Assembly: GCA_040902925.1 (NCBI GenBank)
Contig: JBBDWJ010000244.1
Span: forward strand, 20,795-84,794
Reading direction: 5' to 3'
DNA length: 64,000 nucleotides
Source: Bryobacterales bacterium
GTDB taxonomy: Bacteria > Acidobacteriota > Terriglobia > Bryobacterales > UBA6623
Under the pieces are notes generated by a model that was not told the DNA's origin, did not search any database, and worked only from the letters and a program-made list of their open reading frames with translations. The position numbers and the translations under genes are program-made. Below, in pieces: positions 3,016-46,400 of the stretch (position 1 is its first letter; every line of letters begins with the position of its first letter).

Positions 3016-3082
3016 CGGCGGAGCGCGTCGGGAACGAATCTGCAGCGGTCGAGTCTATCGGGAAAAGCCTGGCATCGGTCAG

Positions 3083-4105: not shown

Positions 4106-4312
4106 GAAAAGGCCCCATCAAAAAAGCTGTCACAAGCCGTCACGAAAGCAGGAGGTCCTCGCCCTGTCCCAACGCGGGCCGATCCTACACGCCGTCAGGC
4201 TAAGCTCCCTATTGATCCTATCAGTGAGTGTTCGGCACGCCTTGCCCCTCGATTAGTTGAGCGCATCGGCGGCTGACAACCCGTTTTGAGGCAAGGCCAC
4301 GTCTTATAATTC

Positions 4313-15437: not shown

Positions 15438-15613
15438 AGCTCCAGCATGACCGATTTGGAAACAGTGGTGGAACCGCGGCGTGATTTCGCGGCAAAACCG
15501 CGCCAGCCTGTTGAGGTTCGACCCGTGCGACAGTAGCTGGCCGCTTTTCGGGCCGTTTCGAAAGCGTTCGGCCCGAGCCCGCGGCTTCCGGCTTTTAGCT
15601 CTACTGCACAGTT

Positions 15614-17347
15614 CTACTGCACAGTGATCGTGTAGGGTGTCAGGCGCATCATGCCGCCTTCCAGCAGCGCAGGCCACGACGAGATGTCTCCGAAGTGAGC
15701 GCGCAGGAAGCCGCGCAGCCGCGAGAGATCGGCCGACTGCCGATCGAACAGCACGTCGATGAACCGTTTCGGCGTCGGGTAGGTGACCAGCCGCACGGTA
15801 TCTTCCTCTTTCAGGCCGGCCTCCCGCTTGGCGACTTCAATGGCCTTTTCGAATCCACCGATTTCGTCGATCAGGCCGTTGCGCTGCGCCTGGGACCCCA
15901 GCCAGACTCGACCCTGCGCCAGTTCGTGGATCTCGTCCCAGGCCTTGCCGCGGGCGTCGGCCACCTTCTGGACGAAAACGCGGTAGGTCTCTTCGATGCC
16001 TTCGCGCAGCTTGGCGCGTTCCACCTCGGTGAGGCTGCGGTAGTCGGTGTAAATGTCGGCATAGCGTCCGCGCGTGAGAATCTCCTTCTTCAGGCCGATC
16101 TTTTCATAAAACCCGTGCAAGTTCAGCTTCCCGAAAAATACGCCAATCGAACCGGTGTAGGTGCCGGGATACGCCACCAGCGGGGCCTTCGTCATCGCCA
16201 GATAATAGCCTCCGGAAGCCGCTACGTCGCTCATCGAAACCACCAGCGGCTTGGCCTCTTGAAGTAGTTGCATCTCGCGCCACATCTCGTCGGAAGCAAA
16301 GGCATCACCGCCGGGCGAATCCACGCGCAAGATGACCGCCTTGGTCTCTTCGTCCTCGCGCACGCTACGCAGCGTTTCGACAAAGCTGTCTGAGCCCAGG
16401 ATGCGGCTTCCAAACGGATCGTTGTCGTTGTCTCCCTGCATGATCGCGCCGACCGCGTAAACAACCGCCACCTTGTTGTCGCCGCCGAGCCCAAGCGATT
16501 CGCGGGACACCTTGCGGTAGCGCTTGGAACTGATCTCGTTCAGCTCCTCGACGCTGAGCTGCTCCTCCAGTTTGTCGTGGAACTCATCCTCGTACAGCAT
16601 TCCGTCGACCAGCCCGGCTTCGAGCGCTTTCGAGGAAAGAAAGGGGCCGTCGTCAACGATCGCCCGCATCTGTTCGGGCGTTTTGCCGCGCGACTCGCTG
16701 GTGGCGGCGAGAAACTGCTCAAAAATCTCGTCGAGGATCGAATTGGTGACTTCACGGAAGGCGTCGGACATTTCATTGCGCGAGTAGGGCTCGACGGCGC
16801 TCTTGTACTTGCCTACGTTTTCCATTTCCGCCTGGATGCCCATCTTGGCGAGCGTGTCCTTGAAGAAGGAAACCTCGGCGCGGAACCCGCGCACGTCGAG
16901 CAGCGCCTCCGGCAGGATGTACACCTGATCGGCGGCGCTGGCGACGTAGTAGTCCAGCGAGCTGCCGCCCGAAAGCAAAGCGACTACGGGCTTGCCGGAC
17001 TTCTGGAATTGCTCAATGTCCCAACGGAGCTCCTGGGCGCGGGCCCAGCCCACTTCGAGGCCATCGCAATAAAGCGCCACGGCCCGGATGCGCTTGTCCG
17101 CCGCCGCATTTTGGAACATATTGCGCACGTCCAGCATCGTCACCGACGTGCCCTGGCCCAGGAAATCCAGCGAAAAATCCATAAACTGATGCTCTGGAAG
17201 GTCGCCGGAAAGCTCGATCGAGAGCACGGAATCGGTTTCGATGCCGGGCTCGCGCGATTCCAAAGACGCAAACACCATGGCGCCAATCACCACCATCATG
17301 ACGACGAGAATGATGCCGGTCAGCACACCGAGCAGATACTTGAGCAT
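15614..17347 (-). CDS. sppA: Signal peptide peptidase SppA, 67K (tandem-domain) type
   Basis: This is a 577-aa ORF with an N-terminal transmembrane segment. It has two ClpP/crotonase-like halves (AVALYCDGLEVGWA...; VILRVDSPGGDAFASDEM...SMSDVAASGGYYLA). Confidence 0.9.
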   Translation of the reverse strand: MLKYLLGVLTGIILVVMMVVIGAMVFASLESREPGIETDSVLSIELSGDLPEHQFMDFSLDFLGQGTSVTMLDVRNMFQNAAADKRIRAVALYCDGLEVGWARAQELRWDIEQFQKSGKPVVALLSGGSSLDYYVASAADQVYILPEALLDVRGFRAEVSFFKDTLAKMGIQAEMENVGKYKSAVEPYSRNEMSDAFREVTNSILDEIFEQFLAATSESRGKTPEQMRAIVDDGPFLSSKALEAGLVDGMLYEDEFHDKLEEQLSVEELNEISSKRYRKVSRESLGLGGDNKVAVVYAVGAIMQGDNDNDPFGSRILGSDSFVETLRSVREDEETKAVILRVDSPGGDAFASDEMWREMQLLQEAKPLVVSMSDVAASGGYYLAMTKAPLVAYPGTYTGSIGVFFGKLNLHGFYEKIGLKKEILTRGRYADIYTDYRSLTEVERAKLREGIEETYRVFVQKVADARGKAWDEIHELAQGRVWLGSQAQRNGLIDEIGGFEKAIEVAKREAGLKEEDTVRLVTYPTPKRFIDVLFDRQSADLSRLRGFLRAHFGDISSWPALLEGGMMRLTPYTITVQ

Positions 17348-32835: not shown

Positions 32836-33705
32836 TCACGCCTCAGGCTTTGTCCTTGCGGCTCCTCGTTGCACGGCCAGGACTCGCTCCCAGCCGGCCA
32901 GATCGCGGTAAACGCTGGGTTTCTCCCACGCCGCGCCATCGAACATCGGCTTGACCGCCGCCGAGGTATTATAGCCGACCTCCAACAGCAGCCATCCGCT
33001 GGGCCGCAGCAGGTCACAGACCGTGGCGCTGAGCCGCCGGTAGGCATCCAGACCGTCCTCTCCTCCAAATAAAGCCAGGTGCGGCTCATAGTCACGGACT
33101 TCCTTCTGTAGGGAGGACATGTCCATCGACGAAATATATGGCGGATTACAAACAATCATGTCGAGGACGCCTTTTTTAAACGCTTCGGACAGGTCCGCCT
33201 GGACCAGGGGAAGATCCAAGCTCAGACTGCGGGCGTTATCTCCGGCAACCGACAGCGCGGCGCGGGAAACGTCGCAAGCGAAGACCCTGGCCCCGGGAAG
33301 ATGCCCCAGGATCGCCAGCGCCACCGCTCCCGAGCCGGTACCAATGTCAAGGATGCAGTCGCCTGCGGACGCACGCGCCAGGGCCTGCTCCACGAGCAGC
33401 TCCGTCTCCGGCCGCGGAATCAGAACATCGGGCGTGACGCGGAACGGCAGGCCGTAAAACTCCTGGCTGCCCGTAATGTACTGGGTCGGCACGCCGCTGC
33501 AGCGGCTTTCCATGTCGGCCTGAAAGCGGGCCGCTTGCCCGGGGTCGAGATCATCGCCGGCGTGAGCGTAAAGAAAGGCCTTGTCGCGCCCAAGCGCGGC
33601 GCACAACAGCACTTCGGCCGTCAGGCGGGGCTCGCCCACATGGGCTTGTTGGAGCGTCGCGACGGCTTGCTGCAGGGCCTTCGAGATGGAGATTGGGGGT
33701 CCCAT
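32836..33705 (-). CDS. prmC: Release-factor glutamine N5-methyltransferase
   Basis: The SAM motif is ILDIGTGSGAVALA and the NPPY motif is IVCNPPYIS. The gene lies downstream of prfA. Confidence 0.92.
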   Translation of the reverse strand: MGPPISISKALQQAVATLQQAHVGEPRLTAEVLLCAALGRDKAFLYAHAGDDLDPGQAARFQADMESRCSGVPTQYITGSQEFYGLPFRVTPDVLIPRPETELLVEQALARASAGDCILDIGTGSGAVALAILGHLPGARVFACDVSRAALSVAGDNARSLSLDLPLVQADLSEAFKKGVLDMIVCNPPYISSMDMSSLQKEVRDYEPHLALFGGEDGLDAYRRLSATVCDLLRPSGWLLLEVGYNTSAAVKPMFDGAAWEKPSVYRDLAGWERVLAVQRGAARTKPEA

Positions 33706-33791
33706 CGGTGTCGCGGGTTAGGACCGTTGCGAGGTCTCCGGAACCGACCCCGGGAGCCCGCCGGGCGCCGTTCCAAACGCCGGGGACGCCG

Positions 33792-34871
33792 TCAGGCGGC
33801 GTCCAGTCCCTGATTCATTAACTCGGCCTGGAAGTGCGACGACAACGGCTCAACCAGCGGGTCGAGGCGGCCCTCGATGATCTGGTCGAGCTGGTGTAAC
33901 GTCAGGCCGATGCGGTGGTCGGTCACGCGGTTCTGCGGGAAGTTGTACGTGCGGATCTTCTCGCTGCGGTCGCCCGTGCGCACCATGCTGCGGCGTTCCT
34001 CGGCCTGCTTGGCGTGTTGCTTGTCGTGCTCCAGCTCGTAGAGCCGCGACCGCAGCACTTGCAGAGCTTTGGCCTTGTTCTTGATCTGCGATTTCTCGTC
34101 CTGGCAGGAAACCACCAGGTTGGTGGGCAGATGGGTCACGCGGACGGCGGAATACGTCGTGTTGACCGACTGGCCGCCGGGGCCGGACGAGCAGAACGTG
34201 TCGATGCGGATATCTTTGGCGTCGATCTGGATCTCGACCTCATCGACCTGCGGCATCACCGCCACCGTTACGGCCGAGGTGTGAACGCGGCCCTGCGCTT
34301 CGGTCTGCGGCACGCGCTGCACGCGGTGCACGCCGCTTTCGAACTTCAGCTTGCTGTAGACACGTTTCCCTGTGACCAGGGCGATGATTTCGCGGAATCC
34401 GCCGCCTTCCGATTCGCTGCTGGAAATGACTTCCATCTTCCAGCGCTGCAGTTCGGCAAAGCGTGTGTACATCCGGAAAATCTCGGCCGCGAACAGGGTG
34501 GCCTCCGTGCCGCCGGTACCCGCGCGGACCTCGAGCACAGCGCCTTTCTCGTCGTTGGGATCAGTAGGCAATAGCAGCACGCCGATGTCCGACAGCAGGC
34601 CATCCATCTCCTGCTGCAGGCCGGCAATTTCCTGGCGCGCCAGCTCGACCATCTCGCCGTCGGAATCCTGGAGCATCGCCCGCGCCGACTCCAACTCCGC
34701 CGCCTTCGTCTTCCAGACGCGGAACTTTTCGACAACGTCTTCGATCTCGGCGGCGGCCTTGGCGGTTTTCTTGTATTGATCGATGTCCTGAGCCAGGGCA
34801 GGGTTAGCCATTTCCGCCGACAAGTTGTCGTAGCGGCGCTCAAGCTGACTCAGCTTCTCAATAAGTTGCAT
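33792..34871 (-). CDS. prfA: Peptide chain release factor 1
   Basis: A GGQ motif ([23 protein letters not shown]) and a PxT-type RF1 tripeptide region are present. There is no internal frameshift site, as expected for RF1. Confidence 0.96.
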
Positions 34872-34892
34872 GGGGGGCCTGCCGGAGCAGCG

Positions 34893-35927
34893 TTAAGCGA
34901 TGACCAGCTCGCCGTCTTGCTTCTCTTCGAGCGCCATGGCCCTGGTCAGCGCGTGGATCGAGACTTCCACCTGGTCGTCGGCCGGGTTCTTGGTGGTAAT
35001 GCGCTGCAGCCAAAGGCCCGGCGCCACCATGCCGTTGAACAAGCGGCTCCGGCGGCGGGATGCGAAACGAATTACCTCGTAGCTCACCCCGGCGATCACC
35101 GGTAGCAGCACGATACGCGCCGCGAACTGCATCGCGAAACCCTCGTAGGGAACCAGCGCGTAGACGAGGATGCTCATCAGCATCACGACCATCAGGAAGC
35201 TCGTGCCGCAGCGCGGATGGAAGGTGACAAACTTCTGCGCCTCGGCGATGGTAACCGGCTGGCCCGACTCATAGTTGAAGACAACCTTGTGCTCGGCGCC
35301 GTGGTACTCGAAAACACGCCGGATGTCGCTCAGTCGCGAGATCACTCCCAGCACGGTGAGAAAGATCGCCAGGCGGATCACTCCGTCGACCAGGCTGAAG
35401 GCGAACTGCCCGTCCAGCCAGGTAACCCGCGCCTTGAGCTGACTGGTTAGCACCAGAGGGACAAACTTATAAAGGAACAGAAAAAACCCGAGCGAAAAGG
35501 CGACGTTGAGGGCCATCATCCAGCCCGGTACTTCCGCCGGCTTCTGATTCTCTTTGCTTACCGCTTCTGTGCCCTCGTCGATGGCGTTATCGGCCGAAAA
35601 TTTGAGCGCCTTGATACCCAGGCTCATCGCCTGCCCGAGCGTGCCCAGGCCGCGAATTACAGGCAGCTTCCAGAACTTCGAGACTTCCGAGAGGCGGTGC
35701 GAAACACCCTCCTGCTGGATGATTTCCCCGTTGGGACGGCGCACCGATATGCAATAGCTGTGCGGCGTGCGCATCATGACGCCTTCGATCACCGCCTGCC
35801 CCCCGATCAAAGGGTCATCGCCGCTCTCGAGCACGGGCATCAACTGCAAGTGGGTCGCCAAGCGGAAGAATTGTCGGAGCCTGTTTTTCATGGCAGCGTA
35901 CCGGCCAGTCTGGAGCCAGTTTCTCAT
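34893..35927 (-). CDS. DUF1385 domain membrane protein (conserved prfA/prmC neighbour)
   Basis: IGGQAVIEGVMMRTPHSYCISVRRPNGEI and YHGAEHKVV are family hallmarks. The start is ambiguous (35927, 35891 or 35840). Confidence 0.85.
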   Translation of the reverse strand: MRNWLQTGRYAAMKNRLRQFFRLATHLQLMPVLESGDDPLIGGQAVIEGVMMRTPHSYCISVRRPNGEIIQQEGVSHRLSEVSKFWKLPVIRGLGTLGQAMSLGIKALKFSADNAIDEGTEAVSKENQKPAEVPGWMMALNVAFSLGFFLFLYKFVPLVLTSQLKARVTWLDGQFAFSLVDGVIRLAIFLTVLGVISRLSDIRRVFEYHGAEHKVVFNYESGQPVTIAEAQKFVTFHPRCGTSFLMVVMLMSILVYALVPYEGFAMQFAARIVLLPVIAGVSYEVIRFASRRRSRLFNGMVAPGLWLQRITTKNPADDQVEVSIHALTRAMALEEKQDGELVIA

Positions 35928-35947
35928 TTTACGATAAAATGTGATTC

Positions 35948-36319
35948 ATGCTGAAACGGGTTTTGCAGGCCGTGGGCCGGGCCATATTTTCGAACTACCG
36001 CCGCGGCTCGTGGCAATACGACCTAATCGTAGCGGGCATATTGGCGTTTATCTTCATCGCGCCGCGGTTCATCAACTTCGGCGACCAGCCGCGGCCGCCG
36101 GCCGTTCAACAGATCGAGTCCCTTTCCGACGGCTCCGGGACGCTGCTGTTCTGGGTGGATCCCGATGTGATTGACGGGACCCCGCCCGAGGAGGTTCCCG
36201 GCAAGCTTCGCTTGCTGCTGCGCCAGCGGACCGGCAGGAACCTGGAAGTAGTAGACACCAAGCCGACGACCGACGCCGAAGGCGCCGTCCGGGCTTACCT
36301 CGTCTACGCGCGCCCCTAG
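35948..36319 (+). CDS. Hypothetical small membrane protein
   Basis: This is a 123-aa ORF with one hydrophobic segment (YDLIVAGILAFIFIAPRF). Its composition is coding-like. I recognise no family. Confidence 0.45.
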   Translation: MLKRVLQAVGRAIFSNYRRGSWQYDLIVAGILAFIFIAPRFINFGDQPRPPAVQQIESLSDGSGTLLFWVDPDVIDGTPPEEVPGKLRLLLRQRTGRNLEVVDTKPTTDAEGAVRAYLVYARP

Positions 36320-36428
36320 AGATCGCCCTCGGCCGCCTGCGGCTGCCTGCGGCGAGGACGGCTGCTGCCCACAAAAGCGCAACCCATCTGCTCCGGGGCG
36401 AATCTAGACTTATAGAGGGCCAACCGCT

Positions 36429-37214
36429 GTGGGGAAATTTTCTCCGCGGCCGCGGCCATGGTTGGACAATCGCGGCTTTGATGCGAGTTCACCCGGAGAC
36501 ATCGTGCTGAGACCCCTTGCCGCCATCCTGGTTTTGTCGCTGGCCCCCGCGTCACTGATTTCCACGCTGAGCGCGGCGGTCGATCAAGAAACCGTGCTGC
36601 GCAACATGGATGCGACGGCCGCGAAGTTTCAGGGTCTGAAAGCGAACGTCGAATGGGTTAAATACACGGCGATCGTTGGAGTGAAGTCCGCGGAACAAGG
36701 GGAAGTCATCGCCCGGCGCAACAAGAACAAATCGGTCGACGTGATGATCGAGTTCAAGACGCAGGACGGAAAACCCTACAACTATTTCGTGACCGTCCAG
36801 GGAGCCAAGGCGCAGATCTACCGCCCGCAAATCGCGACGGTCGAGGAATACGACGTTTCGAAGTCGAAGGACCTCATGGACCAGGTCTTGTTGTTGGGTT
36901 TCGGCACCTCCGGGAGCTACCTCGAAAAAAACTACAACGTCACCATCAAAGGCGAGGAGACGGCTGCCGGTGAAGAGACCGTCAAGCTCGAGCTCGTCCC
37001 TAAGTCCGAAGAGCTGATGAAGAAGATTCCGCGCCTGGAAATGTGGGTTTCCAAAAGCAAGTGGCACCCCGTCCAGGAAAAGCTATACGAACAGAACAGC
37101 GGCGACTACCGGCTGCACACCTACACCAACATCGTCTTCAATCCGCCGCTGAAGGATTCTCAGTTTCGCCTCAAACTGCCCGGAAACGTCAAAAAGGTCA
37201 ACCCTCAGAAGTAA
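36429..37214 (+). CDS. LolA-like outer-membrane lipoprotein carrier/sorting protein
   Basis: Signal-like LRPLAAILVLSLAPASLISTLSAA suggests an in-frame GTG start at 36504 is possible. The LolA-like pattern is ...FQGLKANVEWVKY...LELVPKSEELMKKIPRLEMWV...FNPPLKDSQFRLKLP. Confidence 0.7.
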   Translation: MGKFSPRPRPWLDNRGFDASSPGDIVLRPLAAILVLSLAPASLISTLSAAVDQETVLRNMDATAAKFQGLKANVEWVKYTAIVGVKSAEQGEVIARRNKNKSVDVMIEFKTQDGKPYNYFVTVQGAKAQIYRPQIATVEEYDVSKSKDLMDQVLLLGFGTSGSYLEKNYNVTIKGEETAAGEETVKLELVPKSEELMKKIPRLEMWVSKSKWHPVQEKLYEQNSGDYRLHTYTNIVFNPPLKDSQFRLKLPGNVKKVNPQK

Positions 37215-37331
37215 GATCTTCGCTGGAAGCGCGGGCGTGAGCATCGCCCGCGGCGATGCCCTGATCTCGCAATCCCAGAACCCCTGGCATTCGTGAAGAC
37301 ATTCGCGCTCACCACACTTCAGCGATACGTA

Positions 37332-37380
37332 CGCGCTCCTTCTTGCCTGACACGCGCCTTCTTTGCCTGACGCGCGCCTG
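37332..37380 (+). promoter_or_regulatory. Direct repeat CGCGC(T)CCTTCTT(T)GCCTGAC x2 (plus a partial third copy) upstream of the ATP-grasp operon
   Basis: The copies are at 37332-37351 and 37353-37371, then GCGCGCCTG. The repeat lies about 100 nt upstream of the ATG at 37476. A regulatory role is only a guess. Confidence 0.3.
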
Positions 37381-37475
37381 CGCCGCGCTTCAAACTTCCC
37401 TTCCTCCCCTTACAATCGGCGAGCTTGGTACATTGATTCTGCAAAGGGGCGGCCGTTCGCGGTCGAGCAGAACTG

Positions 37476-39683
37476 ATGAAGATCGCCATCGTCTACAACC
37501 GTGAGAGCCGCAGCGTTATCAACCTGTTTGGCCGGCCGAATCGCGAAAAGATCGGCATGAAAACCATCCGCCGCCTGGAAGAGGCTTTGAAGAAAGGCGA
37601 TCACCAGGTGATTGCGCTCGAAGGCGACAAAGACTTGATCGACCGCCTTGGGGCATTCATGCCGCGGGTGCTCAAAGGCGAGCGGCCGGGCATGGTTTTC
37701 AACGTGTCCTACGGCATTCAAGGCCAAGCCCGCTACACGCATGTCCCCAGCATCCTTGAAATGGTCGGCATCCCCTACGTTGCTTCGGGGCCGCTAGCCC
37801 ACTCGCTGGCGCTCGACAAAGTCGTCACCAAGATGATTCTGCGGCAGCACAATCTGCCTACGCCGGACTTCATCGTGCTCGACAGCCCCGAGGCGGAGAT
37901 CCCCAAGCTCACGTATCCGATGATCGTCAAGCCCAAGAACGAGGCGGTCTCGTTCGGCCTCAAAGTGGTCCACAACGAGAAGGAGCTGCGGGAGGCCGCG
38001 GGCGTGATCTTCAAGGAGTTCGAGCAGGCGGTACTGGCCGAGCAGTTCATCGAGGGCCGCGAAGTCAACGTCGGGCTATTGGGGAACAACCCGCCGGAAG
38101 CATTCCCCCCGGTCGAGTTGAAATTCGGCAAGGGCGGACCGGGCATTTATACGTACGAGGACAAAACGGGCCGCAGCGGCCGTGAAATCGGCCACGAATG
38201 CCCCGCCAAGATCGGCCCCGAGCTGACGGCCAGGGCGGTCGAAATCTCGAAGAAAGCGTTCATGGCGCTGGGCTGCTACGATTGCGCCCGCGTCGATATG
38301 CGGCTCGACAAAAAGGGCAACCTCTACATCCTCGAGATCAACAGTCTGCCCAGCCTGGGCGAGCACGGTTCCTACCTGGTAGGCGCCGCCGCCGTGGGCC
38401 TCGATTTCACGAAATTCGTCAACCGCCTGGTGGAGGTCGCCAGCTCGCGCTACTTCGGAACGCCGCAGCCGCCGCAGTTCGACACCAAGGAGGTCGACAC
38501 CGCCACGCACGCCTTCTCGTTTCTCACCGAGCGGCGCGAACGGATGGAAAAGCGGCTGCGGGAATGGACGTCGCTTTCCAGCCGCACCGGCGATGCCATC
38601 GGCATGCAGCGCGCCGTAAGCCTGGCGAGCGAGATGTTCGACGAACTGGGCATGAAGCCGGTCGTGGAGTTCACCAACGAGCGCGAAGTATGGACCTGGG
38701 AGACGGCCAAGAAAATGGACGACGGCACGCTCTTCATTGGGCACCTTGACGTGCCGTTGGAGGGTTCCGCCCCGCACCAACCATTTCGCCGCGACCCGGA
38801 GTGGCTTTACGGCGAAGGCATCGGCTCCTCGCGCGCGCCGCTGGTGATGCTGGAGTTCGCTTTGCGGTCGTTGCGCAGCATCCGACGGCTGCGCAGCCTG
38901 CCGCTGGGCGTCCTGCTCTATGGTGATGAAGGCTCGGACGCACGGGCCAGCAAAGCCTTTATTGAAGCGGCGGCGGCGCGCGCCAAGCAGGTCCTGATTC
39001 TGCGGCCAGGCAACCTCGGCGATCACATGATCGTGCAGCGCCGCGGCCACCGCAAATACCGTTTTCGCGTCGAGGGCGACGCGCTACGCCCCGGCAGATT
39101 GATCAAGAAGCTGCCCCCGATTCGCTGGACCTGGAAAAGGCTCGAAGAGCTCGCCGAGCTTACCTCTCACAAGAACCGCATCTCTGTCTCAACCCTGGAT
39201 ATGCGGACCGAGCGGCTTCCCATGCGCCTGCCGCACCGCATCACGTCGACGATTCTGGTGACCTACCCCGACCCGGACGTGATCGGGCCGCTGGAGGAGC
39301 GTATGCGGGCGATTCCCGGCAAGAGCGGCCCGCGGTGGGAACTTGAGCTGCTTTCCGATCGCCCTCCGATGCGGGAACGCAAAGGCAACCAGCGGCTCGC
39401 CAAGTCGCTTGCCGAAGTCGCGAAGAACTGGGAGATTCCCCTCAAGTACGAATCTTCGACGTACCCCTCGGTGGCAGGACTGGTGCCGGTCAAGACACTA
39501 TGCCTCTGCGGCGCCGGGCCTGTGGCGCGCGACCTGGGCAACCCCGGCGAGTCGATCCAGCGCATCAGTCTGGTTCAGAGAACGCTGCTGCTGGCCGAGT
39601 TTCTCGCGCAACAACTCCAACCCAAGCAGGACGGCAAGCTGCCACCACCACCAAAACAGGACACCAAGCGGGCGGGGAAATAG
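37476..39683 (+). CDS. Fusion protein: N-terminal D-Ala-D-Ala-ligase-like ATP-grasp domain plus a C-terminal M20/M28-like (possibly degenerate) peptidase domain
   Basis: The first ~330 aa are ATP-grasp (MKIAIVYNRE..., YPMIVKPKNEAVSFGLKVV, AEQFIEGREVNVGLLGN, YILEINSLPSLG). The C-terminal ~380 aa have an M20-like layout (FIGHLDVPL, LYGEGIGSSRAP, LLYGDEGSD). Confidence 0.7.
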   Translation: MKIAIVYNRESRSVINLFGRPNREKIGMKTIRRLEEALKKGDHQVIALEGDKDLIDRLGAFMPRVLKGERPGMVFNVSYGIQGQARYTHVPSILEMVGIPYVASGPLAHSLALDKVVTKMILRQHNLPTPDFIVLDSPEAEIPKLTYPMIVKPKNEAVSFGLKVVHNEKELREAAGVIFKEFEQAVLAEQFIEGREVNVGLLGNNPPEAFPPVELKFGKGGPGIYTYEDKTGRSGREIGHECPAKIGPELTARAVEISKKAFMALGCYDCARVDMRLDKKGNLYILEINSLPSLGEHGSYLVGAAAVGLDFTKFVNRLVEVASSRYFGTPQPPQFDTKEVDTATHAFSFLTERRERMEKRLREWTSLSSRTGDAIGMQRAVSLASEMFDELGMKPVVEFTNEREVWTWETAKKMDDGTLFIGHLDVPLEGSAPHQPFRRDPEWLYGEGIGSSRAPLVMLEFALRSLRSIRRLRSLPLGVLLYGDEGSDARASKAFIEAAAARAKQVLILRPGNLGDHMIVQRRGHRKYRFRVEGDALRPGRLIKKLPPIRWTWKRLEELAELTSHKNRISVSTLDMRTERLPMRLPHRITSTILVTYPDPDVIGPLEERMRAIPGKSGPRWELELLSDRPPMRERKGNQRLAKSLAEVAKNWEIPLKYESSTYPSVAGLVPVKTLCLCGAGPVARDLGNPGESIQRISLVQRTLLLAEFLAQQLQPKQDGKLPPPPKQDTKRAGK

Positions 39684-39686
39684 CCG

Positions 39687-41303
39687 ATGGTCTCGAAACT
39701 TCGACGCGCCCCCGTGGACACCGAACGGCTTGATATCGGAAACCGCCGCATCCGCTTCCCGCAGCGCGTGGGGGTCTCACGCAACGGCATGGTCGCGACG
39801 GCGCAGCACCGCGCCACCGACGCCGGCGTCGAAATTCTCGAGGAAGGCGGCAACGCCATCGACGCCGCCGTGGCCGCGGCCTTCGCACTCGGCGTCTGCG
39901 AGCCGGCAGCCTGCGGGCTCGGCGGACAGACCATGATGCTGATTCACCAGGCCGAATCCCGCCGCACGATTGCTCTCGATGGCTCTTCGCGAGCGCCCAA
40001 CCGCGCCGTGCCGGGTTTGCTCGACAAGCCAGAACGGCGCATGGGCTATCGGGCGATGACGGTCCCGAGCACGCCGGCGTGTCTGCGCTACGCCCTAGAG
40101 CAGTACGGCACGCTCAAACTGCCGCGCCTGCTAGAACCGGCCATTCGCCTTGCCGAAGAGGGTTATGAGATCACGCCGTTGCAGCACTGGCTTGCCCGGC
40201 GCGAGCTCAAGCTTCTCAAGTCGGGCACAGCGGCCCGCTTCTTTCTGCGCGATGGCGAGCGGCCGTATGCCACGGGCGCTTTGTTTAAGCAACCAGTTCT
40301 CGCCGAGACGTTGCGCCGCCTTGCGAAGAAGGGCGTCCGGGATTTTTACTCCGGAGAAATCGCAGCGCAGATCGAGCAGGACATGCTCCGCAACGACGGG
40401 CTCATCCATCGCGACGACCTGGCGCAAGTGCCCCGTCCGATCGAGCGGCGCCCAGTTTCGGGCCACTACATGGGCTACCGCGTGTTCACGTTCCCTCCGC
40501 CGGCCGCCGGACGTACGTTGATTCAGATGATCAACGTGTTCGACCACCTGCCAGCCAAGAATCGCAACCTCGACACGCCGGAAGGCGCGGTTGCCCTCGC
40601 CGAGGTGATTCGGCGCGCGTTTCTCGACCGCCAGGATCGTCCCTATGATCCGAACTTCTACCTGCAAGTCAACTCGAAGCGTATGTTGAGCACGGGGCAC
40701 GCCAAGACCGTGGCCCGCCAGGTTCTCAAGCGGCTTCGCACATCGGGTGAGACCACGCATCTTTCCGTGATGGACCGGTACGGCAACGCCGTGGCGCTGA
40801 CGCAGTCCATCGAAAACGTCTTCGGGTCATGCTCGGCGACGGCGGAGCTGGGCTTTCTTTACAACAACTACATGAACGCGTTCGATTACTCGGACATCTC
40901 GCACCCGCACTACATGCGGCCGAACGCGGTGCCCTGGGCGAGCGTCGCGCCAACGATCGTATTTCGCGGCAAGCGCCCCTGGATGGCGATCGGGTCCCCG
41001 GGAAGCGAGCGCATTACGCCCTCAATCTTTCAGGTATTGCACCGCCTGCAGACGCACACTCCGTTCGCGGCCGTGGACGCGCCGCGACTGCACTGCTCGC
41101 TGACCGGCACGGTTTCGTTCGAGGCGGCCCGCATGCGCGACGACATACCGGCGGCGTTGCTACGTCATGGCTATCAGCTCGATATTCGCGATCCCTACTC
41201 GTTCTATATGGGCTGCGTGCAATTGGTTATGCACGAGGGCGAAGAATTCATCGGCGTCGCCGACCCGCGCCGGGATGGCTCGGCCCGGGGTCCCGCCAAG
41301 TGA
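39687..41303 (+). CDS. ggt: Gamma-glutamyltransferase-family protein without an obvious signal peptide
   Basis: The N-terminal region reads GMVATAQHRATDAGVEILEEGGNAIDAAVAAAFALGV. The autoprocessing/nucleophile region is SGETTHLSVMDRYGNAVALTQS, and GSPGSERI follows. The start lies 4 nt after the upstream stop. Confidence 0.88.
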   Translation: MVSKLRRAPVDTERLDIGNRRIRFPQRVGVSRNGMVATAQHRATDAGVEILEEGGNAIDAAVAAAFALGVCEPAACGLGGQTMMLIHQAESRRTIALDGSSRAPNRAVPGLLDKPERRMGYRAMTVPSTPACLRYALEQYGTLKLPRLLEPAIRLAEEGYEITPLQHWLARRELKLLKSGTAARFFLRDGERPYATGALFKQPVLAETLRRLAKKGVRDFYSGEIAAQIEQDMLRNDGLIHRDDLAQVPRPIERRPVSGHYMGYRVFTFPPPAAGRTLIQMINVFDHLPAKNRNLDTPEGAVALAEVIRRAFLDRQDRPYDPNFYLQVNSKRMLSTGHAKTVARQVLKRLRTSGETTHLSVMDRYGNAVALTQSIENVFGSCSATAELGFLYNNYMNAFDYSDISHPHYMRPNAVPWASVAPTIVFRGKRPWMAIGSPGSERITPSIFQVLHRLQTHTPFAAVDAPRLHCSLTGTVSFEAARMRDDIPAALLRHGYQLDIRDPYSFYMGCVQLVMHEGEEFIGVADPRRDGSARGPAK

Positions 41304-41989
41304 GCCTGCCGCTGCTGCTTTCGGTGCCGCATGCCGGCTTGCGGGTGCCGCCTGAGGTGGAATCTTTCTGTACCCTCACACCGCGCGAGATTGCCGAAGA
41401 TAGCGACGAAGGCGCAGCGGAAATCTACGCGCTCGAATCGCACGTGGCGGCCTACCAGACCGCCGATGTGGCGCGCGCCGTCGTCGATCTGAATCGCGCG
41501 CCCGGCGACCGCCGGCCCGACGGCGTCGTCAAAACTCACACCTGCTTCCATGTGCCCGTTTATCGCGAGTTTCCTCCGGAGCCGGTCGTCGAAGCCCTCC
41601 TCGAGCGTTACTACTGGCCCTATCAGCAGGCGCTGACGCGGCTGGCGTCCCGCGATGTGATGCTTGCGGTCGACTGCCATACGATGCTCGCCAAGGGCCC
41701 GCCGATCGGGCCTGGCCCGGGCATCGAGCGTCCCTGGGTTTGCCTTAGCAACGCGGATGGCACTTGTCCTCAATCCTGGATCGAGGCGCTGCAGCGTTGT
41801 TTCCAGGATGTGTTTGAAGGGCCGGTCACGATCAACGATCCCTTCCGGGGCGGTTACATCACTCGCACCCATGCCGCCGAAATGCCTTGGGTGCAACTGG
41901 AACTGTCGCGCGCTGCGTTTCTGAGCCTGGCCGAGAAACGCGAACGCGTACTGGCAGCCCTCGCCGCCTGGTGCCGCCGGAACTTGTGA
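41300..41989 (+). CDS. N-formylglutamate amidohydrolase (FGase) family protein
   Basis: VSLPLLLSVPHAGLRVPPEV...AVVDLNR...LAVDCHTM resembles the FGase/HutG family. The GTG start overlaps the ggt stop (GTGA). The upstream part of track ORF 40829..41989 is out of frame within ggt. Confidence 0.65.
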   Translation: MSLPLLLSVPHAGLRVPPEVESFCTLTPREIAEDSDEGAAEIYALESHVAAYQTADVARAVVDLNRAPGDRRPDGVVKTHTCFHVPVYREFPPEPVVEALLERYYWPYQQALTRLASRDVMLAVDCHTMLAKGPPIGPGPGIERPWVCLSNADGTCPQSWIEALQRCFQDVFEGPVTINDPFRGGYITRTHAAEMPWVQLELSRAAFLSLAEKRERVLAALAAWCRRNL

Positions 41990-42158
41990 CCGGGGCAGTG
42001 CATCGCGCTTGTCCAAAGACTCAAAAAACCCGAAACACCCCAACCACAAGGAGCCCGGCGCTGCGATCGGTATAATTGCGGCCAGGTGCAGCGCCCGGCC
42101 GTCAGAGCCGCCGCGCCCGCAATTGCCTGGAAGGCCCACTCATTCCTGGGAGGCATTC

Positions 42159-43286
42159 ATGAATCTTCGCCATCGCCGTTCGTCGCTGTTCACGCTCCTC
42201 GTCATCGTTCTGGCTTTCGCCCTGACAGTACCGAACACGTCGGCGGCTTCGGCGGACCGCTTCGAGCAGGCCATCAAGGCAGGCCGCGCCGCTGTCGAGG
42301 AACTGGTCGAGTCTCCGAAGGGTCCTCCCGGAATCGGCGTCGCCGTGTTGGTGGATGGCAGAATCGTTTGGGCGGATGGTTTTGGCTTTGCCGATCTCGA
42401 ACAACGCGTGGCGCTCTGGCCCCATACGAAGATGCGCATCGGCAGCGTCTCGAAACCAATCACCTCGGCCGCGCTTGGCCTGCTCTACGAGCAGAACAAA
42501 CTCGACCTCGATGCGCCTGTCCAGAAATACGTGCCGTCGTTCCCCAAGAAAAAATACCCCATCACTACGCGGCAGGTCGCCGGGCATCTTTCCGGCATCC
42601 GTCACTATGAGGACCGCACGGATGCCGAGGTCTTCAATACACGCCACTTCGCCACGGTGCTCGAAGGGCTTTCGCTTTTCAAGGATGATCCGTTGCTGTT
42701 TGAGCCCGGTGAGAAGTTTCACTACTCCAGCCACGGCTGGAATCTGCTCAGCGCGGTGGTCGAAGGCGCCTCCGGGCAGGACTTCCTCAGCTATATGCAA
42801 CGGAACGTCTTCGACGCGGCCGGAATGCGCCACACCATCGCCGACCTCAACGCGCTAATCGTTCCAAATCGCGCGCGGTTTTACGTCCGCGACGAACAGG
42901 GGCATTGGAAGAACGCGCCCTATGTCGACAACAGCTACAAGTGGGCCGGCGGTGGGTTTCTGTCCACGCCGGAAGATCTGGTGCGCTTCGGCTGGGCGAT
43001 CATCGGCGGACGTCTGCTGAAACCGGAAACCGTCACCCTGTTTACCACCTCGCAGCGAACCAGCGACGGCAAAGAGACCGGCTACGGCATCGGCTGGGAT
43101 GTCTCAACAGACAGCAAGGGACGCCGCACGATCGGGCACGGTGGAGGTTCGGTGGGCGGAGCCTCGGGGCTGTTGGCTTACCCCGAACAGCGCGTCGTTG
43201 TCGCCATCATCGTCAACACCGGCGAGATCCCCGATCGTGACAAACTCATGCAACGCATCGCCGAGGGATTTATCGCAGCGCCGTAG
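42159..43286 (+). CDS. Secreted beta-lactamase-fold serine hydrolase (class C / esterase family)
   Basis: The signal peptide is MNLRHRRSSLFTLLVIVLAFALTVPNTSAASA. The SxxK motif is IGSVSKPITSAALG, followed by YSSHGW and GHGGGSVGG. The ATG at 42159 was confirmed. Confidence 0.85.
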   Translation: MNLRHRRSSLFTLLVIVLAFALTVPNTSAASADRFEQAIKAGRAAVEELVESPKGPPGIGVAVLVDGRIVWADGFGFADLEQRVALWPHTKMRIGSVSKPITSAALGLLYEQNKLDLDAPVQKYVPSFPKKKYPITTRQVAGHLSGIRHYEDRTDAEVFNTRHFATVLEGLSLFKDDPLLFEPGEKFHYSSHGWNLLSAVVEGASGQDFLSYMQRNVFDAAGMRHTIADLNALIVPNRARFYVRDEQGHWKNAPYVDNSYKWAGGGFLSTPEDLVRFGWAIIGGRLLKPETVTLFTTSQRTSDGKETGYGIGWDVSTDSKGRRTIGHGGGSVGGASGLLAYPEQRVVVAIIVNTGEIPDRDKLMQRIAEGFIAAP

Positions 43287-43451
43287 CTCAATTCGCTGCG
43301 AATGGACGCTCCCGGGCGCCCGCGCCTCCATCCGCGTGCCGCGGGAAATCTCGCGCAGACGGCGCGGCGGTTGACCGGCAAAACAGATCGGCGTCCCAGG
43401 GGGCATGTCGCGCTCCCGGCCAGGCACCACAAGGCTCTCCAGGAAACTCCG

Positions 43452-46400
43452 CTAGAAAACCAGGCGCAGCGACAATTGCACGGTTCGCGCCAGCCCCTCG
43501 GTCCTGACGATCCCGAAATGAGGATCATCGATGTTGGTGAACGGAAAATCCCAGTTCCTGTTGTTGAACACGTTGAGGAAGTCGAAGCTGATGTCCGCAG
43601 ACAGGATTTCGCTGACGGCAAGCTGCCTAGTCAGCCTCAGGTCCCATTGCTGAAAACCCTGCATGCGAAATTGGTTGCGCGTCACTGTCCCCGGGCGAAG
43701 TTCATTGAAGTTGGTGGGATCGACATTTTGGAACACCGTCGGGTCGAAAGCGAACCTGCCGGTGATGGTTCGGCCGTCCTGAAGCGTGAACGTACGGACC
43801 TCACTGGGATCGAGCAACTGGAACTCGCCGACCAGGTCGGGCCGCCCGATGCGCTGAAAGCTGTAGGTGGGGTCCTTGGTTTGGCGGATATCGAGCGGCA
43901 GGCCCGAGCGCCAGCGCCACAAGCCGGTGACCTGCCAGTTGTCGAGCCAGGCGAGTTTGCCGTTCCAGCTTCGCGGCAACCGCCATTGATAAAACCACGA
44001 GGCCGTCAGAGTGTGCGTGCGGTCGAAGCTGGAGGGCGACCACGGCGCGGTGATGAGCTCGTCGCCAAAATCGCTGCTGCCATTGTCGAATGACTGCGAC
44101 CAGGTGTAGTTGAGATCAAACGCCAAGCCGCGGGCAAGGTAGCGGTTGGCGCGCAACTGCGCACCATGGTAGCGGCCGCTGCCTGAGCTCTCGAACGAGC
44201 GGATGTCGCGGTATTGCGAAAACCGCCGCATGTTGTCGATGAAGGCAAAACTGAGCACCGGATTTCGCTCGAACAGATTCAACTCGCGCTGGCGCTGCAG
44301 CGATAGGGTTCGCGTGCCGACGTAGACCGCGCTGGCGAATACGCGCCCGGCCAATAGCCGCTGCCAGCCGATGGTCCAATGGTGAGCCCTGGCGTTGTCG
44401 AAGTTGGGGTCGAACACCAGGATGGGGTAGGAGACCTGGTTGGAAATGATCTGTCCGGGCTCGAGGCGAGGCACGGTGGAAAGCGGCGCGCGAAAGCTGC
44501 CCTTCGTGCCGAGCCGGCTGAACTCGAAGCGGTTGTCAGTGCTCCAGGGCGGATACGTGGCGCGAAACAGCGCCGTAGCGCTCGATCCCGCGAAAGTTCC
44601 AAAATCGTAAAACACCCCGTAGGAAGCGCGGAATACCGAGCGGCCCGACTCGCCCAGGATCCAACGCGACAGCCGGTTATCCCAGCCAGGCGAAAAAGCC
44701 AGACCGACCCGCGGAGCCCAGTTGCGGCCGTCGGTGCCTACCGTCGAGCGCGGCAACGCGCCGCCCAAAGGGTCGGGGTCGCCCGGGAAGATCAAGTTCG
44801 GGAGGGTGTTGGGAAATTTCTGAGTCGTCACGCCCTCGCGGAAAGCGGCGATGCGGTCAAAGCGGTCGACCGCCGGGGGCTGCGACTCGTAACGAATACC
44901 CAAAGTCAGTTGCAGGCCGCGCGCCAGCCGGAAGTCGCCCTCGCCGTAGAAAGCAAACTCCTCCCAGCGCAAATCGAGGCTGCGCGGGCTCTGTAGGCGA
45001 TAACGTCCCGGAACGCCCATCAACAGGTTGGCCACGCTGTTGCGCGTTCCCTGAAAGGCGCCGGCAATGAAATCGAAGCTGCCGGCGAAGTTTTCCGTAT
45101 TCGTAAACGGCCAGATGCCTCGCCGAAACAGCGCGCCGCCGCGCAGCACGTGGCCCCGCGGGCGGTACTCGAAATCGTTGCGGATCTGGTAGGTCGTTTC
45201 GATCGACGACTCCGAAGAAACGAACGGCGCGATCCGAAATCGCTGCGCGCCCGTGTTCGTGAATAGCGTCACATCGGGGATCGTTCCTGGATCTACACCG
45301 CTGAAGCTGGCGTAGTCGAACCCAAACGTGCCGGCCGACGTATCGTGATAGTCCAAATGGCCCGTCCAGCGACCGATCGACAAACGCTGGCCGGAAAGCT
45401 GCACGGCGTGAGTGATGTTCGGCGTCGGCGTATGGATGACCGAAATTTGCGCGTTGTGGGAGAGCTGACGGCGCCGCGAGACCGCGCGCGGAGACGGTGT
45501 CAGGAAATCGCTAAGGGGATCGCGCACCACGTTGCGGAACCCTACGTGGCTGGCGTTGATGGCCCACTTTGACAAGCGATAATCGAGCCGCCCCAGGAAC
45601 ATTTCCCCGGTGCTTTCGAGATTGTTTTCGGCCTGGTGCAGCGCTTGCCCGAACACGTTCGGTTCCGGGACAAACGTGGCCAAGTACTTTTGCATCAGGG
45701 GATCAAAACGGCTTTCGGGAACCTTGCCGTCGGGGAACAGTTGTCCGCTTTGCGGATCCAAAGGAGCGGTGGCGGGGTCGCTCGAAAAATCGCCCAGCCG
45801 TTCCTGGAAACTCAGGACGGGATATTGTGCCGTATGCCGGCGCTCAGCGCGCCAGATCTCTCCATCGAGCAACAGGAACAAGCCGCGCGCGAGCGGACCG
45901 CCGGCCTGGCCGCCGCCCGCGAATCCCTCCAGCGAATCCGTCGAGCCGTCGTAGGTCTCCAGAAGATTTCCAAGATGCGGGCGCCAGAAGCCGCGCGCCT
46001 GGCCGTGCCAGTTGGGCCCGCCGCCGCGGGTCACCGGAGCGACCACGGCTCCGGCGTTGCGGCCGTCGCGGGCGGAATAGGTGTGGGTCACGACGCGGAA
46101 GGTTTCGATCGCTTCCGGCGCCGGCCCGTAGGTGCCGGCCTGGGAGCCGGTGAGCCGGTTCTGGGCGTTGTTCGATCCGCCATCAAGCTGGTAGTTGATC
46201 GCCGAGCGCCGCGACCCGTTGGCGGAAACAGCCGCGCCGCGCCCCGAAAACGGATTAACCTCAAGGGCCTCGACAGGGCTCATGCCCGGCACCAAGAGAA
46301 GCATCTTGTCGAGCGCCGTGCGGCCCTCGGTGCCAAGCAAAACCGGGACCGCTTCGATCTGCTCGCGCACCAGCCCGTATTCCAGTGCGATGCCTTCCAA

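Follow-up and report, generated by a model that had tools for sequence, protein, structure and literature searches.

A widespread three-gene cassette pairing an ATP-grasp ligase fused to a pseudo-M20 domain with GGT- and FGase-family homologues: a candidate make-and-break module for a small amide conjugate

ATP-grasp enzymes form amide bonds, and the CPG2, N-formylglutamate amidohydrolase (FGase) and GGT families act on glutamate amides. Ligases of this kind occur together with hydrolases in several described systems, such as glutathionylspermidine synthetase/amidase (GspSA), carnosine synthase (ATP-grasp) with carnosinase (M20) and LysX (ATP-grasp) with LysK (M20). The asnO-ngg-peptidase operon of N-acetylglutaminylglutamine amide (NAGGN), a non-ribosomal dipeptide osmoprotectant, also includes a peptidase gene (PMC8070244). 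Here we describe a three-gene cassette at positions 37476-41989 of a 64,000-nucleotide stretch of DNA (the window) from a Bryobacterales bacterium (Acidobacteriota; assembly GCA_040902925.1, contig JBBDWJ010000244.1), encoding a fusion of a Ddl-type ATP-grasp ligase with an M20-fold pseudo-peptidase, a GGT homologue and an FGase homologue. Literature searches found no paper on the fusion or on the gene trio; the cassette family is without a characterised member, and the ligase-pseudo-peptidase fusion within a widespread cassette appears to be new. As judged from sequence, each component departs from its nominal family (Ddl, M20, GGT and HutG, respectively) in at least one defining test.

The three genes lie on the plus strand and are tightly coupled. 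Gene 1 (37476-39683), an open reading frame (ORF) of 735 amino acids, comprises the ligase half (residues 1-335, 37476-38480), the M20/CPG2-fold half (residues ~341-717, 38496-39626) and a Lys/Pro-rich low-complexity tail, PKQDGKLPPPPKQDTKRAGK (residues 716-735, with the stop codon at 39627-39683). Its TAG (39681-39683) is separated by 3 nt, CCG, from the ATG at 39687 of gene 2 (39687-41303, 538 amino acids), a leaderless GGT-family (T03) Ntn hydrolase, which in turn shares a 4-nt GTGA overlap (41300-41303) with the GTG start of gene 3 (41300-41989, 229 amino acids), an FGase-family amidohydrolase. The start has to be this GTG, and a longer ORF opening at ATG 40829 is not the gene, because the orthologues start right before the same LPLL.SVPHAG motif. 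A scan for intrinsic terminators found none between the three genes, and hydropathy revealed no signal peptide, hydrophobic N-terminus or membrane segment in any of the three products. A first-pass annotation made from the letters alone had proposed three tightly coupled genes with these junctions, a Ddl-like ATP-grasp fused to a domain of M20 layout, a GGT with its TTH nucleophile region and no signal peptide, and a gene 3 resembling N-formylglutamate amidohydrolase, all of which are borne out by the coordinates above and by the family, profile and structure searches below.

Residues 138-320 of gene 1 match Dala_Dala_lig_C (PF07478, E 8e-39), and the ligase half retrieves Ddl entries of the PDB with E ~1e-31 by phmmer. 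In an AlphaFold2 (AF2) model of the gene 1 product (pLDDT 84.7, pTM 0.76), this half superposes by Foldseek on DdlB of Pseudomonas aeruginosa (8evz_A) with a TM-score on the target of 0.80 (E 3e-22). Residues were numbered against E. coli DdlB, in a register that agrees with the 1iov match range. The eight residues involved in ATP, Mg2+ and transition-state contacts all have equivalents that are invariant in a 61-sequence alignment of the family, K97, K144, E180 and K215 corresponding to K115, K152, E189 and K230, and R255, D257, E270 and N272 to R272, D274, E287 and N289. The omega loop (YTYEDKTGRSGR) is present and conserved and carries the catalytic Lys K230. Owing to the invariance of the ATP, Mg2+ and catalytic residues, the ligase half should be catalytically competent.

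Its substrate pocket is a different one. The D-Ala-binding positions are replaced (S150 by V158, Y216 by T231, H63 by Y79, S281 by G298 and L282 by S299), leaving the E15 equivalent (E24) as the only residue kept out of the E15-S150-Y216 triad, H63, S281 and L282. G276 has become S293, and the GEDG loop reads GQAR within an invariant QGQARYTH (signature YGIQGQARYTH). The omega loop carries a GxSGR insertion with an invariant arginine, R236; R86 is a second invariant arginine of this half, and an invariant cysteine, Cys270, adjoins the catalytic Arg272. Automatic annotation labels many family members "D-alanine--D-alanine ligase". The best NCBIfam Ddl score, however, is 180.5 bits (NF002378) against a cut-off of 243, all Ddl/Van models stay below their cut-offs and the equivalogs far below, and no mur or fts genes stand beside gene 1, its neighbours being the GGT and FGase homologues. 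The first-pass annotation had named a bona fide Ddl acting in peptidoglycan synthesis as the case that would overturn its own proposal; with the substrate residues lost, the scores below cut-off and the cell-wall context missing, genuine Ddl identity is excluded for practical purposes. The ligase half is instead predicted, from its residues and the model, to be a Ddl-type ligase that should be competent and that carries a novel substrate pocket.

The C-terminal half matches Peptidase_M20 at residues 419-709 with 22.5 bits in a single-sequence Pfam search, under the gathering score of 24.6, and a single-sequence search barely finds CPG2 (E 9e-4). A 27-sequence profile retrieves CPG2 (1cg2) from the PDB with E 1.2e-11, and in the AF2 model this half superposes on 1cg2 with TM 0.75 over 392 columns covering both sub-domains, including the dimerisation (lid) sub-domain; the poly-aspartate hydrolase PahZ2 (7ljh) is the next M20 match by Foldseek. 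Two motif substitutions had been noticed by eye in the first-pass annotation, GIGSSRAP in place of GxxDxKGG and DEG in place of DEE, and both were read correctly, S452 standing at the bridging Asp (metal ligand D141 of CPG2) and G486 at the metal ligand E176. The comparison with characterised M20 enzymes that it had called for adds R510 at E200 and G688 at H385, which brings the substituted positions to four of the five metal ligands. The fifth, H112, corresponds to H423, a position that varies between H and N in close relatives and between A, Q, P and R in distant relatives. The equivalent of the conserved Asp D114 (D425) is invariant, that of the general base E175 (E485) is invariant in the close family and gives way to DAG, DSG, DRG or DCS in divergent fused relatives, and the substrate-binding His of the lid has become R538.

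An exhaustive search of 1.8 billion representatives yielded 762 relatives; fused relatives were found down to 26-36% identity, none of them with the full metal-ligand set. Standalone M20 proteins of 375-395 amino acids, at 22-29% identity, keep HxD, GxGxxDxKGG, DEE, EP and HxxxE, and in that alignment each of the five metal ligands is intact in the canonical standalone M20 relatives. Given the ligand losses relative to CPG2, the cassette domain is therefore predicted not to be a metallopeptidase, and the M20 half is, by its sequence, an old and long-standing pseudo-peptidase without an intact metal site. It is nevertheless 46-65% identical across phyla, conservation extends to the former active-site region and to the dimerisation sub-domain, and several invariant arginines surround the former metal site; this strong constraint and the position of the arginines suggest a retained role in ligand binding and/or dimerisation. 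The earlier idea of a binding or regulatory pseudo-enzyme is thus upheld by the lost ligands in its second term, and in its first a binding or regulatory role fits the strong conservation, as a scaffolding or oligomerisation role also would. The tail PKQDGKLPPPPKQDTKRAGK is not present in most orthologues, and pLDDT falls below 50 for residues 717-735. Two proteins of standalone length from the search of representatives, P0125 (380 amino acids) and P0128 (428 amino acids), are 40-45% identical to the pseudo-M20 half over its full length; they may represent the domain in unfused, split form, or else fragments of genes.

Gene 2 matches G_glu_transpept (PF01019, E 2e-115), aligns over its full length with E. 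coli GGT (2e0w, E 6e-69) and scores 338.4 with the TIGR00066 equivalog, just under the cut-off of 357.85. In the alignment to E. coli GGT, Thr356 (codon 40752-40754, plus strand) faces the nucleophile T391, within GETTHLSVMD, a motif kept as GeTTHLSvMD in at least 97% of 70 gene 2 orthologues. The maximal Kyte-Doolittle value is 0.65 over the first 56 residues, and the ORF cannot extend upstream. The E. coli residues R114, N411, Q430, D433, S462 and S463 are those we take, from the E. coli and B. subtilis structures, to be the six gamma-glutamyl-binding residues; four of these six are replaced in gene 2 (R114 by S100, Q430 by Y395, D433 by A398 and S462 by A418), S463 is kept as S419, and the N411 position holds E376, a Glu as in Bacillus GGT. 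The T409 position holds Ser. The oxyanion residue G484 has become Ser, a change that is fixed in the orthologues like the four pocket replacements. In E. coli GGT, the D433N substitution reportedly confers acylase activity on glutaryl-7-aminocephalosporanic acid, that is, acceptance of a donor without an alpha-amino group. Since the residues binding a free alpha-amino group and alpha-carboxylate are replaced, and in view of this precedent, we infer an N-blocked or non-amino-acid donor. Gene 2 is predicted to combine an intact nucleophile with a rebuilt, non-canonical donor pocket.

Gene 3 matches FGase (PF05013) with 138.8 bits (E 4e-40) against a gathering score of 28.9. A single-sequence phmmer search of the PDB gave nothing, and a profile of the gene 3 family retrieved 2q7s (E 3e-10). 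The motifs SxPHxG, DxD, RxxxDxNR, DCHT and NxPFxGG are invariant in the orthologues, as are H11, D34, D36, D125, H127 and H191. A specific identity as HutG was considered and rejected: gene 3 scores 62.2 with the HutG equivalog (TIGR02017), far below its cut-off of 278.75, and no hut genes were found around the cassette in the window or at related loci.

A relative of gene 1 is encoded in 304 of 185,579 species-representative genomes, and the counts out of 80 loci and the list of phyla given from here on concern the best 80 of these 304. All 80 loci come from metagenome-assembled genomes (MAGs). They belong to Planctomycetota, Acidobacteriota, Actinomycetota, Pseudomonadota, Verrucomicrobiota, Desulfobacterota, Nitrospinota, Zixibacteria, Cloacimonadota, Ignavibacteria, Sumerlaeota and Eisenbacteria, the Actinomycetota being Acidimicrobiales and including the Candidatus genera Poriferisodalis and Aldehydirespirator. 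The conservation of the neighbourhood, which the first-pass annotation had left to be checked, proved extensive, with the same three genes in the same order in about 65 of the 80 loci; this recurrence places the three-gene unit far beyond chance. Across these ~65 loci the cassette proteins are 52-82% identical, the GGT and FGase orthologues at 52-73% and the N-terminal half of gene 1, which is placed first and is the most conserved, at 68-82%. In a few loci (L006, L024, L028 and L044) the GGT and FGase genes are convergent, and two loci, of a planctomycete and of a Vicinamibacteria MAG, have a second GGT-family paralogue inserted in the cassette (L004, 10769-12418; L023, 9935-11494); the other loci are mostly truncated contigs. 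In one Acidobacteriota MAG (L082, 12550-16649, on the same contig as L008), gene 1 has neither the GGT nor the FGase orthologue behind it. It precedes a QEGLA/MATCAP-type peptidase (TIGR02421), a GshB-like ATP-grasp (PRK12458) and a divergent FGase-like gene, with amino-acid permeases and several genes with mechanosensitive-channel domains in the flanks; this arrangement was seen in one genome only.

The median identity between phyla (55-62%) is close to that within Acidobacteriota or Planctomycetota (63-64%), and the nearest neighbours of the window's gene 1 protein are planctomycetal (71%), other Bryobacterales copies being ~65% identical. Both observations suggest strong constraint together with horizontal transfer, by which the cassette has probably spread. 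One copy (L083) is flanked by a phage integrase, an HTH_17 gene, a DNA polymerase A gene and a weak match to a terminase small subunit (2512-6368 and 15537-15932), and may lie on a prophage or an integrative element. No cassette relative was found in the viral contigs of IMG/VR, for which reason a role as a phage auxiliary gene was rejected despite the position of the L083 copy between integrase-like and terminase-like genes; anti-phage defence was rejected as well, none of the three proteins having a PADLOC match.

Two rounds of neighbour clustering revealed no fourth universally conserved gene. A Mg2+ transporter-family gene lies within 7 kb of the cassette in 22 of the 80 loci (CorA, with its GMN motif, in 9, MgtE in 11 and CNNM/CorC in 7), an MscS-type channel gene in 12, and one or the other in 28. 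Twenty-one of these genes are at most 400 bp from the cassette, and 12 of the 21 share its strand. CorA either overlaps the cassette or comes right after it in one planctomycete, one acidobacterium and one zixibacterium. Examples are an MgtE and a CorA gene in the same locus (L002, 5578-6777 and 11595-12569), a CorA gene in L043 (5616-6782), a CNNM gene in L012 (3766-5007) and a CNNM and an MscS gene in L086 (797-1849 and 6561-8246). Such genes stand beside the cassette in at least five phyla, and the filling of this position by different transporter families in different phyla suggests a functional link rather than one inherited arrangement. About 27 Mg2+ transporter genes in ~1.1 Mb of flanks correspond to a ~20-fold excess over a crude expectation of one per Mb, which is our own rough estimate made without a matched control. 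Mg2+ import and efflux by MgtE and by MpfA, a CNNM protein, play a central part in the osmoadaptation of B. subtilis (PMC8844918), and mechanosensitive channels are release valves for solutes (PMC5924519). From gene neighbourhood and precedent, the NAGGN osmoprotectant operon being one such precedent, the cassette may have a physiological role in ion or osmotic homeostasis.

The closest relatives found in cultured organisms came from tblastn against plasmids: standalone ATP-grasp proteins matching the N-terminal half only, at 41-45% identity, on plasmids of Bradyrhizobium, Mesorhizobium, Rhizobium and Sinorhizobium. They share YGIQGExRYTH, FMPP and RYFG with the cassette ligase and differ in the omega loop. 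On plasmid pBb323S2b of B. barranii (L087, 3282-8047), the genes of a KamA-family radical-SAM aminomutase, a GGT, a 7TM_transglut (RloB-like) protein and the ATP-grasp stand in this order, and this GGT is 43% identical to the cassette GGT, with the same DGxSRAP, LTQSI and LYNNY signatures. The same type of ligase being paired with the same subtype of GGT in this sister clade, the ligase-GGT partnership pre-dates the fusion. Other contexts comprise PanD, KamA, the ATP-grasp and an Orn/Lys/Arg decarboxylase on a Mesorhizobium plasmid (L089), and EctB, an L-amino-acid-ligase (LAL)-type ATP-grasp, the ATP-grasp and Asd on an S. meliloti plasmid (L088). By gene content, the sister-clade ligase and GGT are tied to enzymes predicted to make beta-amino acids, diamino acids or amines. 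These sister systems sit among insertion sequence (IS) elements, and no homologue of KamA, 7TM_transglut or the decarboxylase was found near the cassette itself. In P. aeruginosa, rloABC, which encodes RloB-type 7TM proteins and an ATP-grasp, is needed for osmotic stress tolerance (PMC12239564).

Taken together, we tentatively favour, at somewhat less than an even chance, a cytoplasmic make-and-break operon in which one ligase and two hydrolases act on the same small metabolite with a role in homeostasis. The ligase would turn an amino-acid carboxylate into an acyl phosphate and join it to an amine beneath the closing omega loop, this mode of coupling speaking for a small dipeptide or amide as product rather than a modified protein tail. 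Since the D-Ala pockets are rebuilt and the arginines R86 and R236 invariant, the partner could be an acidic one, for example glutamate or glutamine, and the convergence of CPG2, FGase and GGT chemistries on glutamate amides is what chiefly suggests a glutamate core. The product would then probably be of N-aminoacyl-glutamate type, or else an amino-acid-amine conjugate. The CPG2-like domain, as a sensing or scaffolding pseudo-enzyme, would most likely bind an N-acyl-glutamate-like product or substrate or hold the dimer. The GGT homologue would autoprocess at Thr356 and cleave a gamma-type side-chain amide whose donor alpha-amino group is blocked or absent, and the FGase homologue would strip the N-acyl-glutamate so formed of its N-acyl or aminoacyl group, which would restore the building blocks. 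The neighbourhood would make of this conjugate a compatible solute or a counter-ion buffer in ion and osmotic homeostasis.

The first-pass annotation had proposed a cytoplasmic pathway that builds and recycles a glutamate-containing product. The cytoplasmic part agrees with the absence of signal peptides, and the glutamate part is weakened by the replacement of four of the six GGT pocket residues; building and recycling are in keeping with a conserved, coupled set of ligase and hydrolases, the action itself being deduced from the enzyme families only.

Several observations weigh against this operon reading. The altered GGT pocket weakens the case for a glutamate core, and the contexts of the sister clade point to beta-amino acids, diamino acids and amines over glutamate. 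One ligase and two hydrolases in the same operon would be a futile cycle unless regulated, and neither a conserved regulator in the cassette neighbourhood nor a riboswitch or RNA leader upstream of the operon (no Rfam match at E<=1 across 33000-44000) was found. The association with Mg2+ transporters and MscS covers about one third of the loci, its counts are inflated by related genomes and its enrichment holds against a rough expectation only; the 64-kb window itself contains no Mg2+ transporter or MscS gene. Finally, there is no cultured host among the best 80 loci. A more specific form of the proposal, which we hold to be doubtful, is that the cassette makes an undiscovered cytoplasmic, amide-linked amino-acid conjugate, for example an N-aminoacyl-glutamate or -glutamine or an amino-acid-amine, widespread among uncultured marine, sediment, soil and sponge-associated bacteria. 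The ligase, controlled by the dead M20 domain, would set the level of this conjugate, which would act with CorA, MgtE, CNNM and MscS in Mg2+ and osmotic homeostasis.

Among other explanations, a catabolic or salvage module is unlikely. The hydrolases would here degrade a glutamyl compound, N-acylated or gamma-linked and either imported or damage-derived, and the ligase would re-use one moiety, with no role in homeostasis, as could be expected of a cassette in which two of three enzymes are hydrolases and which has amino-acid permeases near one Acidobacteriota locus and an adjoining Amidohydro_1 gene in Acidimicrobiales loci. Neighbour clustering revealed, however, no uptake transporter conserved with the cassette, all three proteins are predicted to be cytoplasmic, and the most conserved and first-placed protein is an ATP-consuming ligase (68-82% in its N-terminal half) that pure degradation would not need.

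It is quite unlikely that the cassette is a specialised-metabolite cluster, making a dipeptide antimetabolite by an L-amino-acid-ligase-type reaction, as for bacilysin or tabtoxin, with the hydrolases in pro-drug processing or self-protection. ATP-grasp dipeptide ligases do make such antibiotics, the sister clade lies on rhizobial symbiosis plasmids with IS elements, enzymes forming unusual amino acids and a second, LAL-type ATP-grasp, and integrase-like and phage-like genes border one of the cassette copies. The cassette has, on the other hand, neither a precursor-modifying enzyme nor an exporter, its relatives are absent from the viral contigs searched, and, unlike variable biosynthetic clusters, it keeps a fixed content of three genes with 55-74% identity in about a dozen phyla.

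Modification of a protein tail in the manner of RimK or TTL, in which the ligase would attach amino acids to a protein C-terminus recognised by the dead CPG2-like domain and the GGT and FGase homologues would be the erasers, appears very unlikely. CPG2 does recognise a C-terminal glutamate, weak TTL and RimK Pfam matches exist, and in one genome gene 1 stands beside a MATCAP/QEGLA peptidase, a GshB-like ATP-grasp and an FGase-like gene. That adjacency is nevertheless confined to a single genome, no conserved candidate target gene was found, the GGT and FGase families act on small molecules, and the best homology by far is to Ddl, whose omega loop closes over small substrates and is conserved here.

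A variant gamma-glutamyl cycle or low-molecular-weight thiol pathway is highly improbable. Its ligase would work as GshB, its GGT would cleave gamma-glutamyl bonds and its M20 domain would derive from a Cys-Gly dipeptidase; the set of families indeed resembles that of the gamma-glutamyl cycle (GGT, ATP-grasp synthetase and M20 dipeptidase), and Cys270 is invariant beside the catalytic Arg272. Yet the ligase is Ddl-type and not GshB-type, the M20 domain is a dead one, the GGT has lost most of its gamma-glutamyl-binding residues, and neighbour clustering linked no gamma-glutamylcysteine ligase to the cassette. An ordinary peptidoglycan D-Ala-D-Ala ligase fused to a peptidase, as the fold, the best matches and many automatic annotations would have it, has next to no chance of being correct, with 180 bits against the 243 required by the broadest model and scores far under all equivalogs, S150, Y216, S281, L282 and H63 all replaced, and GGT and FGase homologues instead of mur or ftsQ as neighbours.

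Upstream of the operon, a consensus scan gave a sigma-70-like promoter match on the plus strand (TTCAAA, 16 nt, TACAAT; 37389-37416, 9 of 12 positions), ~60 nt before the start codon of gene 1. Directly upstream of these hexamers, a repeat search found an imperfect tandem direct repeat of ~20-nt period (37331-37379, plus strand), in which TTGCCTGAC(A/G)CGCGCCT occurs twice and which may be a regulator-binding site or operator. The genes flanking the cassette in the window (32836-37214 and 42009-43286) look unrelated to it. Two ORFs at 32836-33705 and 33792-34871 resemble PrmC and PrfA by eye only; they are followed by a DUF1385 protein on the minus strand (34893-35927, Pfam), a 123-amino-acid ORF without Pfam match (35948-36319) and a LolA-like protein (36429-37214, Pfam), and on the other side of the cassette lies a beta-lactamase-family serine hydrolase (42009-43286, Pfam).

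At the least, this analysis corrects an annotation, the product of gene 1 being predicted to be neither a cell-wall Ddl nor an active peptidase, and it adds to the first-pass annotation the cross-phylum distribution, the recurrent link with Mg2+ transporters and MscS and the rhizobial sister pair. If the make-and-break operon is real, a highly conserved enzyme of 716-735 residues, which hundreds of genomes list under the wrong name of "D-alanine-D-alanine ligase" or "M20 metallo-hydrolase", would define a new small-molecule pathway in major uncultured lineages, among them Acidobacteriota, Planctomycetota and sponge-associated Acidimicrobiales. It would also provide a clean and ancient case of a pseudo-peptidase recruited as a ligase domain, a naturally occurring GGT variant whose donor pocket is rebuilt and a testable biochemical partner for Mg2+ and osmotic homeostasis.

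Compared with its nominal families, the cassette shows in each component a mixture of likeness and departure. With Ddl and VanA, the ligase shares the fold, the residues stabilising ATP, Mg2+ and the acyl phosphate, and the omega loop, in keeping with a predicted small-molecule dipeptide ligase chemistry; it differs by the lack of D-Ala-specific residues, the GxSGR insertion, the M20 fusion and a location outside cell-wall clusters. The M20 half has the whole-domain fold of CPG2/M20A and of PahZ2, lid included, and keeps the equivalents of D114 and E175 (D425 and E485), the second of which is lost in divergent fused relatives, whereas four of five Zn-ligand positions are substituted, the fifth is H or N and the lid His is Arg538. 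The GGT homologue is related over its full length to the E. coli and Bacillus enzymes (MEROPS T03), with the nucleophile Thr motif, Ser at the T409 position, a Bacillus-like Glu and S463, but it is leaderless, carries the changes R114 to S, Q430 to Y, D433 to A, S462 to A and G484 to S, and falls below TIGR00066. The FGase homologue shares its Pfam family and its His/Asp motifs with HutG and differs from it in equivalog score, in the lack of a hut context and in its constant pairing with the ligase and the GGT homologue. The rhizobial cluster, also uncharacterised, has neither the M20 domain nor the FGase gene, differs in its omega loop and adds a membrane protein, and the P. aeruginosa rloABC system, more distant than the rhizobial cluster, links 7TM_transglut and ATP-grasp proteins to osmotic stress tolerance. 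No cassette protein is orthologous to components of the GspSA, NAGGN, carnosine or LysX/LysK systems. The likeness to these four lies in an ATP-dependent amide ligase co-encoded with, or fused to, a hydrolase family for the same class of bond, the ATP-grasp and M20 pairing recurring in the carnosine and LysX/LysK systems; the difference is that the M20 partner of the cassette is predicted to be dead and that hydrolysis would be left to the GGT and FGase homologues.

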